Below are positions 56,369 through 58,092 of a DNA stretch of 58,190 nucleotides, piece after piece. Where the stretch lies: assembly GCF_003334255.1 (NCBI RefSeq), contig NZ_QOWU01000031.1; one strand, written 5' to 3'. Position 1 is the stretch's first letter. Each line of letters starts with the position of its first letter. The position numbers were made by a program, and so were the translations under genes. Under the pieces are notes generated by a model that made no database searches, was not told where the DNA came from, and saw only the letters and a list, made by a program, of their open reading frames with translations. Source of the DNA: Escherichia coli. Its GTDB lineage: Bacteria > Pseudomonadota > Gammaproteobacteria > Enterobacterales > Enterobacteriaceae.

Positions 56369-57496
<1,128 letters not shown>

Positions 57497-57840
57497 TTAT
57501 GTTGGCGTTTTCTATTCAGTATAGAAGTCGGAGCGGCTGGGCGAGATGCGGAAGTTCTGGAATGTTTCTTTTTTTTGGTGATGGTGAACTGATGGTGCCT
57601 GAAGCAATTTGGCTACTTTTGCAATGTGACAAGTTATGGCAGTGCTGACTGGTGGCGAAGAATTTTGACGATTGAGTCATGCAGAAAAAAACGGGTTCAG
57701 CTTCAGTTGATTAAATGAGGAGTGAGAAGTCCGAAACAGGACTCACTGTATAAATAAACAGCTATTTTGTTGAGGAAGGGTAAGATAACGGCGGGTGCCT
57801 GAAGCTTTCCGGTTTCAGGTTTACTCTGAGGTCTGGAAAG

Positions 57841-58092
57841 ATGAAGCCCCAGGAGATATTTCTATCAACCCTGGGGCTGCCACTCCAAACCCGAACAATT
57901 TGGATGGTAGTCCCTTCTTCGCATGGAGGCAATATAAACATGCTGACGAAATATGCCCTTGCGGCAGTCATAGTGCTGTGTTTAACGGTGCTGGGATTTA
58001 CGCTTCTGGTCGGAGACTCGCTGTGTGAGTTTACGGTGAAGGAACGTAATATTGAGTTTAAGGCTGTTCTCGCTTACGAACCGAAGAAGTAG
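57841..58092 (+). CDS. mokE: mok-type overlapping leader frame of the hokE locus (modulator of killing)
   Basis: 83-aa frame that contains the whole hokE frame at its 3' end, which is the arrangement of hok/mok loci. Confidence 0.5.
57940..58092 (+). CDS. hokE: Hok-family type I toxin, 50-aa membrane peptide
   Basis: [50 protein letters not shown]: one TM helix plus the conserved Hok C-terminal region with Cys. Located next to ybdK as in K-12. Confidence 0.9.

Follow-up and report, generated by a model that had tools for sequence, protein, structure and literature searches.

The 12-mer GGTGCCTGAAGC occurs twice on the plus strand of the window, by which we mean the whole 58,190-nt stretch of Escherichia coli DNA analyzed here. 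We consider it very probable that the two copies, which lie 200 bp apart, are related neither by descent nor by function: copy 2 is the conserved tac end of the hokE mRNA, and copy 1 is a chance look-alike in the spacer between ybdK and hokE. An exact search of the window confirmed both occurrences recorded in the first-pass annotation, at 57594-57605 (copy 1) and at 57794-57805 (copy 2). It found no further exact copy and a single copy with one mismatch (42725-42736, minus strand), indicating that the 12-mer is not a many-copy dispersed repeat of the REP/BIME-like kind within these 58 kb.

Organization of the ybdK-hokE locus

The region is E. coli K-12-like, and only one base differs from MG1655 over 56400-58190. 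MG1655 coordinates were converted to window coordinates with an offset of 549896. The features of the locus are as follows.

56369-57487, minus strand: ybdK, carboxylate-amine ligase gene and divergent neighbor of hokE (open reading frame list; RefSeq annotation)
57580-57600, plus strand: imperfect 11-nt tandem duplication GATGGTGAACT / GATGGTGCCT (alignment of nine loci)
57594-57605, plus strand: copy 1 of GGTGCCTGAAGC in the ybdK-hokE spacer, 107-118 nt upstream of the ybdK start codon (exact search)
57725-58110, plus strand: hokE locus unit (promoter, leader and mok/hok reading frame), truncated on its 3' side by IS186 (left edge of the duplication unit; IS186 position in MG1655)
57793-57948, plus strand: hokE mRNA 5' leader (Rfam 'sok', RF01794)
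57794-57805, plus strand: copy 2 of GGTGCCTGAAGC, hokE mRNA nt +2 to +13, tac element and predicted 5' arm of the metastable hairpin (RF01794; folding)
57837-57896, minus strand: sokE antisense RNA gene (MG1655 annotation 607733-607792, mapped)
57940-58092, plus strand: hokE toxin coding sequence (RefSeq annotation; Hok-family matches)
58111-58190, plus strand: left end of IS186 (MG1655 IS186B at 608007-609351)

The open reading frame 3' of the leader, hokE, encodes a Hok-family toxin. It was matched by Hok-family NCBIfam models with E = 1e-12 and 5.5e-10 (scores short of the cut-offs curated for HokA and Hok) and by R1 Hok in a tblastn search with E = 7e-11. Opposite the leader lies an antisense Sok RNA gene, the annotated sokE (57837-57896, minus strand). 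A promoter-like sequence, TTGCCT-17-TACCAT, was read at 57932-57904 (minus strand) and is a putative sokE promoter. The same sequence is listed by prediction as a ybdK promoter in PMC3946193; judged from its position, it maps to the sokE promoter, would be placed to drive sokE and not ybdK, and does not lie at copy 1.

In MG1655, IS186 is directly followed, at its right end, by the fbi box (aaggcacctg) and the terminator; the native hokE fbi is 1.35 kb away in K-12, behind the insertion element. Because both elements lie beyond IS186, the K-12 hokE reading frame is cut off from its 3' regulatory end. Pedersen and Gerdes reportedly described hokE as IS-inactivated in K-12 in 1999, and the split by IS186 corresponds to the inactivated state known for hokE in K-12.

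Several additional observations were made at the locus. The sole difference from MG1655 over 56400-58190 is at 57457, where the window has C and MG1655 has G; this change results in YbdK P11A and in a new HindIII site, and, as a further effect, the 10 nt at 57453-57462 form a perfect inverted repeat of CTGAAGCTTT in the hokE 5' sequence (57799-57808). Among complete RefSeq E. coli genomes, none was 100% identical to the window over 57400-58125. An ATG at 57841 starts an 83-codon frame that runs to 58092 (plus strand) in frame with hokE; this ATG is a candidate mok start, as are downstream starts. RefSeq also annotates a 'hypothetical protein' ORF at 57703-57971 (minus strand), antisense to the hokE leader, which is frameshifted in K-12 and intact (approximately 89 aa) in several strains. 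This ORF probably results from spurious annotation of the conserved hok/sok leader. In MSB1_4I (locus L008, 1697-2917), ISEc53 directly follows the hokE promoter-proximal sequence (at about window position 57755), and hokE is unannotated in the stretch compared. Together with the IS186 insertion in K-12, this insertion suggests that the hokE locus may be a recurrent IS target.

Copy 2 is the tac element of the hokE mRNA

The hokE leader was compared with the Rfam family RF01794, which, despite its name 'sok', represents the hok-sense strand and spans the mRNA from its 5' end up to the start codon of hok. The model aligned to 57793-57948 over model positions 1-157 with 84.4 bits (gathering score, 59; E = 3.6e-19), and it also matched both O157 hok units, with 75.5 and 83.8 bits. 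The match begins at 57793, and therefore copy 2 corresponds to nt +2 to +13 of the hokE mRNA. These nucleotides occupy model positions 2-13, for which the consensus is GGGUGCUUGAgc.

Folding predictions were in accord with this placement. A 38-nt fold gave a predicted hairpin at 57793-57826, in which 57793-57806 is paired with 57811-57826 (-16.2 kcal/mol, z = -2.95); 1 of 200 shuffled sequences folded as well. Copy 2 is the 5' arm of this predicted hairpin, and the earlier proposal that the second 12-mer belongs to a hairpin at the 5' end of the hokE mRNA was thus borne out. For the first 58 nt of the mRNA, a tac stem followed by a long hairpin was predicted, matching the Rfam consensus. In the intact 401-nt hokE mRNA of O157:H7, nt 1-8 (GGGUGCCU) were predicted to pair with AGGCACCU, just 5' of the terminator hairpin (z = -7.4). 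This tac/fbi pairing is a folding prediction in the intact O157 allele; in the window, IS186 separates hokE from its fbi box.

The copy-2 12-mer was present exactly once per hok unit in every fetched locus having such a unit, both units of tandem pairs included. It was invariant in all genomes compared, unlike copy 1.

The scheme of the hok mRNA, comprising tac/fbi closure, the metastable hairpin and the tac stem, is summarized in PMC9841398. Applied to hokE, it would give copy 2 three successive roles. In the nascent transcript, copy 2 would supply one arm, the 5' one, of the metastable hairpin. Once the mRNA of an intact allele is full-length, G+1 and the first 7 nt of copy 2 would base-pair with the fbi box at the 3' end, holding the molecule in its closed form. 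Trimming of the 3' end would then let copy 2 form the tac stem, which would open the leader to translation and to Sok binding. For the hok family, all three roles are established; for hokE, we infer them from homology and folding.

Copy 2 is therefore not a new element; it is the already known and well-characterized 5' tac element of hok mRNA, and its conservation is fully explained by the predicted RNA structure. With the hok mRNA family it shares RF01794 positions 2-13, the predicted metastable 5' hairpin and, in intact hokE, the predicted fbi pairing. Nothing differs in kind from the family; here, as in K-12, IS186 parts the fbi partner from hokE.

Copy 1 is a polymorphic site in the ybdK-hokE spacer

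Copy 1 sits in the second unit of the 11-nt duplication at 57580-57600, and 'short' alleles have no first unit. The alleles found at the copy-1 site are listed below with their identity to the 12-mer (fetched loci are denoted by L numbers).

GGTGCCTGAAGC (K-12 type), 12/12: the window, L001, L009, L010 and L011
GGTGACTGAAGC (short allele without the first 11-nt unit), 11/12: O157 (L002), L006, L007, L008 and L014
GGTGACTGAAGT, 10/12: L005
TGTGACTGAAGC, 10/12: L003
TGTGAGTGAAGC, 9/12: L004
TGTGACTGAAGA, 9/12: L012

Locus L013 has a long allele that carries GGTGACTGAAGC, with the duplication reading GATGGTGAACT / GATGGTGACT; a single A-to-C change at 57598 separates it from the K-12 form. Judged from these alleles, the C at 57598 is a K-12-lineage substitution that completes the 12/12 match; the ancestral state at this position was assigned by parsimony within E. 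coli only. Other lineages diverge from the hok sequence at copy 1, with T at 57594, G at 57599, and T or A at 57605. The exact K-12 allele was present in approximately 1984 of 5410 matching records (approximately 37% of complete E. coli genomes).

The presence of the first 11-nt unit was discordant with ybdK relatedness. Locus L003, which is long, has 6-8 ybdK differences from the short loci L006 and L007, and L004, also long, has 14 ybdK differences from the short locus L008. This scattering of long and short forms across ybdK lineages points to recurrent slippage or recombination at 57580-57600, and the segment appears to be a slippage/recombination hotspot upstream of ybdK. In this respect, the context of copy 1 is like that of other intergenic tandem duplications made by slippage: it is unit 2 of an imperfect 11-nt duplication, with scattered presence. 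The likeness covers the context of copy 1 only and provides no link to copy 2.

The sampled strain loci showed six alleles and the 11-nt indel at copy 1, and the site is thus not a conserved cis-regulatory element among them. A role of copy 1 in RNA structure was rejected, no structure being predicted on either strand. Coding constraint was likewise rejected: the ORFs over copy 1 (57499-57648, plus strand, and 57516-57680, minus strand) had no NCBIfam match, and the 11-nt indel would frameshift both. A scan for consensus promoters and terminators around copy 1 found none, and the supplements of PMC7815308 and PMC10301672 contain no start-site entry for it. Copy 1 is without detectable function of its own.

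A contig scan with a 21-mer from the spacer returned only L010 (PYVH01000101.1, 'Marinobacter sp. B9-2'). In this record, K-12-type ybdK-spacer DNA is joined to IS-like sequence and to an oppositely oriented ybdK; the most likely explanation is that the Marinobacter record was contaminated with E. coli DNA or contains a chimeric assembly.

The 12-mer pair is within chance expectation

The similarity between the two sites is short. Ungapped extension of the 12-mers gave 16/19 identity between 57587-57605 and 57787-57805, with AAC shared at -7 to -5 of the flank. A further weak match (9/10) links 57523 with 57725; its spacing is 202 nt compared with 200 nt for the 12-mers, and the register is nearly equal.

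For a sequence of 58,190 nt, the theoretical expectation is approximately 101 same-strand exact 12-mer pairs, of which approximately 0.9 pairs would fall within 250 nt. The window contained 369 exact direct 12-mer pairs, 17 of them (at 6 loci) within 250 nt. Windows simulated with a second-order Markov model (n = 100) averaged 1.7 close pairs, and 69% of them had one or more. The view that a chance 12-mer repeat is unlikely in 58 kb was consequently wrong, and the pair is not above chance expectation for a window of this size. Unrelated 13-mer direct pairs no more than 250 nt apart, longer than the hokE 12-mer, were found at 35843/35981, 40901/41048 and 41771/41996. These three pairs, together with a REP-like repeat cluster at 24711-24870, show that the background rate of short close repeats in the window exceeds the Markov expectation.

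Recombination between copy 1 and copy 2 would leave a predicted 200-bp deletion junction. This junction was found in 0 of 5,426 complete E. coli genomes (E<=1e-40).

Copy 1 is very unlikely to be the relic of a hok unit

The annotation had raised the idea that copy 1 survives from a duplicated hok 5' region; a related possibility is that an additional hok unit once lay upstream of hokE and that everything else in it has been deleted or has decayed. The locus gives this idea some footing, since hokE units do duplicate in tandem here and hok islets arising by local duplication have been reported (bioRxiv 10.1101/2025.08.07.668861). Tandem hokE was found in O157:H7 (L002, 2813-3783), L005 and L007, where units of approximately 470 nt, 94-97% identical, are arranged head-to-tail with a period of approximately 503 nt. 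The hokE duplication in these three is like the islets described in that report. Many E. coli strains carry the tandem duplication; K-12 has one unit, with IS186 interrupting downstream. The 16/19 similarity with flanks and the 9/10 match in similar register also fit a relic.

However, the boundary of the duplicating unit excludes copy 1. In each of the three tandem-hokE genomes, the duplicated unit begins 69 nt before the 12-mer, at a point that corresponds to window position 57725. Copy 1 ends at 57605, and so lies outside any such unit, 120 nt past its left boundary, and shares only 12-19 nt with it. Local alignment around the first copy found no extended similarity to the hok unit, the resemblance stopping at 19 nt. 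RF01794 had no match in 57488-57792 even at E<=10. A tblastn search of the spacer with HokE and R1 Hok gave no Hok peptide trace better than E = 0.78 over 6 residues (positive control, E = 1e-35).

The similarity was also assessed in a post hoc test, in which the 237-nt spacer (57488-57724) was aligned locally with the 401-nt hok unit and scored against dinucleotide shuffles. The best local alignment was the 12-mer alone (16/19 with soft scoring), with p = 0.03-0.07. When the spacer carried the O157-type copy-1 allele, the result was indistinguishable from shuffles (p = 0.55-0.83). Furthermore, most lineages match hok worse at this site than K-12 does. A true relic would be expected to resemble hok no less in those lineages. 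The perfect match was gained by a recent single substitution, which is the opposite of decay from an identical copy. Descent from a hok duplication was rejected on the shuffle-tested alignment, the Rfam scan, the tblastn search and the mapping of the unit boundary; this reading is largely refuted, and we regard it as very unlikely.

Other explanations of the match

The match could be other than coincidental and still functionless, if the A-to-C change at 57598 had been copied from the hok 5' end by template switching between 11/12 quasi-repeats. The one-step intermediate GGTGACTGAAGC occurs both in the short alleles and in L013, the change at 57598 is precisely what makes the two sites identical, and copy 1 is in a slippage-prone duplication. 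Nevertheless, no special mechanism is required to explain one substitution at a site with many variants, copy 1 has moved away from the hok sequence in other lineages, and the flanking homology able to guide a template switch is 4 + 7 nt only. On present data, templated mutation is indistinguishable from an ordinary point mutation at 57598, and we consider it highly improbable.

It had also been suggested that the 12-mer is a shared regulatory element, for example a protein-binding site that coordinates ybdK and hokE in cis. Both copies do lie in the divergent ybdK-hokE control region, and RNA polymerase holoenzyme SELEX peaks occur in the ybdK-hokE spacer (PMC3946193). The population data did not sustain this suggestion. 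Copy 1 is not conserved within the species: it is polymorphic, matching at 9 to 12 of 12 positions, its exact form is confined to K-12-type genomes, and the 11-nt indel shifts the site relative to ybdK in many strains. The 12-mer has no dyad symmetry, the conservation of copy 2 is accounted for by RNA structure without a shared binding site, and the predicted 'ybdK' promoter maps to the sokE promoter, away from copy 1. A shared binding site is therefore exceedingly unlikely.

The start-site table of PMC3415461 (supplement file 2) lists a minus-strand 5' end at window position 57827 and attributes it, by proximity only, to ybdK, which would give this gene a 340-nt leader. The position is 10 nt beyond the annotated 3' end of sokE, and instead of marking a ybdK start, the 5' end could stem from read-through or processing of Sok.

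A K-12-type minus-strand RNA running from the hokE leader toward ybdK would carry the complement of copy 1, GCUUCAGGCACC, which would pair with hokE mRNA nt +2 to +13 and might imitate fbi in trans or offer the hokE tac a second antisense partner. The listed 5' end at 57827 and the loss of the mRNA's own fbi to IS186 in K-12, where the native fbi is 1.35 kb away, would suit such a role; but that end is tied to ybdK by proximity only, the copy-1 segment has no predicted structure, the exact copy-1 allele is found in approximately 37% of genomes (counted irrespective of IS186 insertion), and an RNA from 57827, if it exists, would already be perfectly antisense to the hokE 5' end across 57793-57827, so the copy-1 complement would add nothing. 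The probability of this role is close to nil.

Origin and meaning of the match

Taken jointly, the hok relic, templated mutation, a shared binding site and the trans fbi mimic have a small combined probability, and none of these residual alternatives to coincidence is of high interest. The reading that we favor is coincidence. Under it, copy 1 would have arisen as a chance look-alike in unit 2 of the slippage-prone 11-nt duplication, in unconstrained spacer, and only the K-12-type lineage, by acquiring the A-to-C change at 57598, would have reached full identity. Some observations weigh against coincidence: the small comparison of 237 x 401 nt was nominally unusual (p approximately 0.03-0.07), the flanks extend the match to 16/19, with the 9/10 match (57523 and 57725) in nearly the same register, and the ancestral state rests on parsimony within E. 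coli only.

A spacer site that drifted to identity with the tac end in one lineage makes the 'repeat' an ordinary one. The exact recurrence of the 12-mer at 200 bp is within chance for a 58-kb window and in itself matters little. It carries a caution for similar cases: when a short exact repeat lies beside a known RNA element, its variation across the population should be examined before it is called a relic or a regulatory site.
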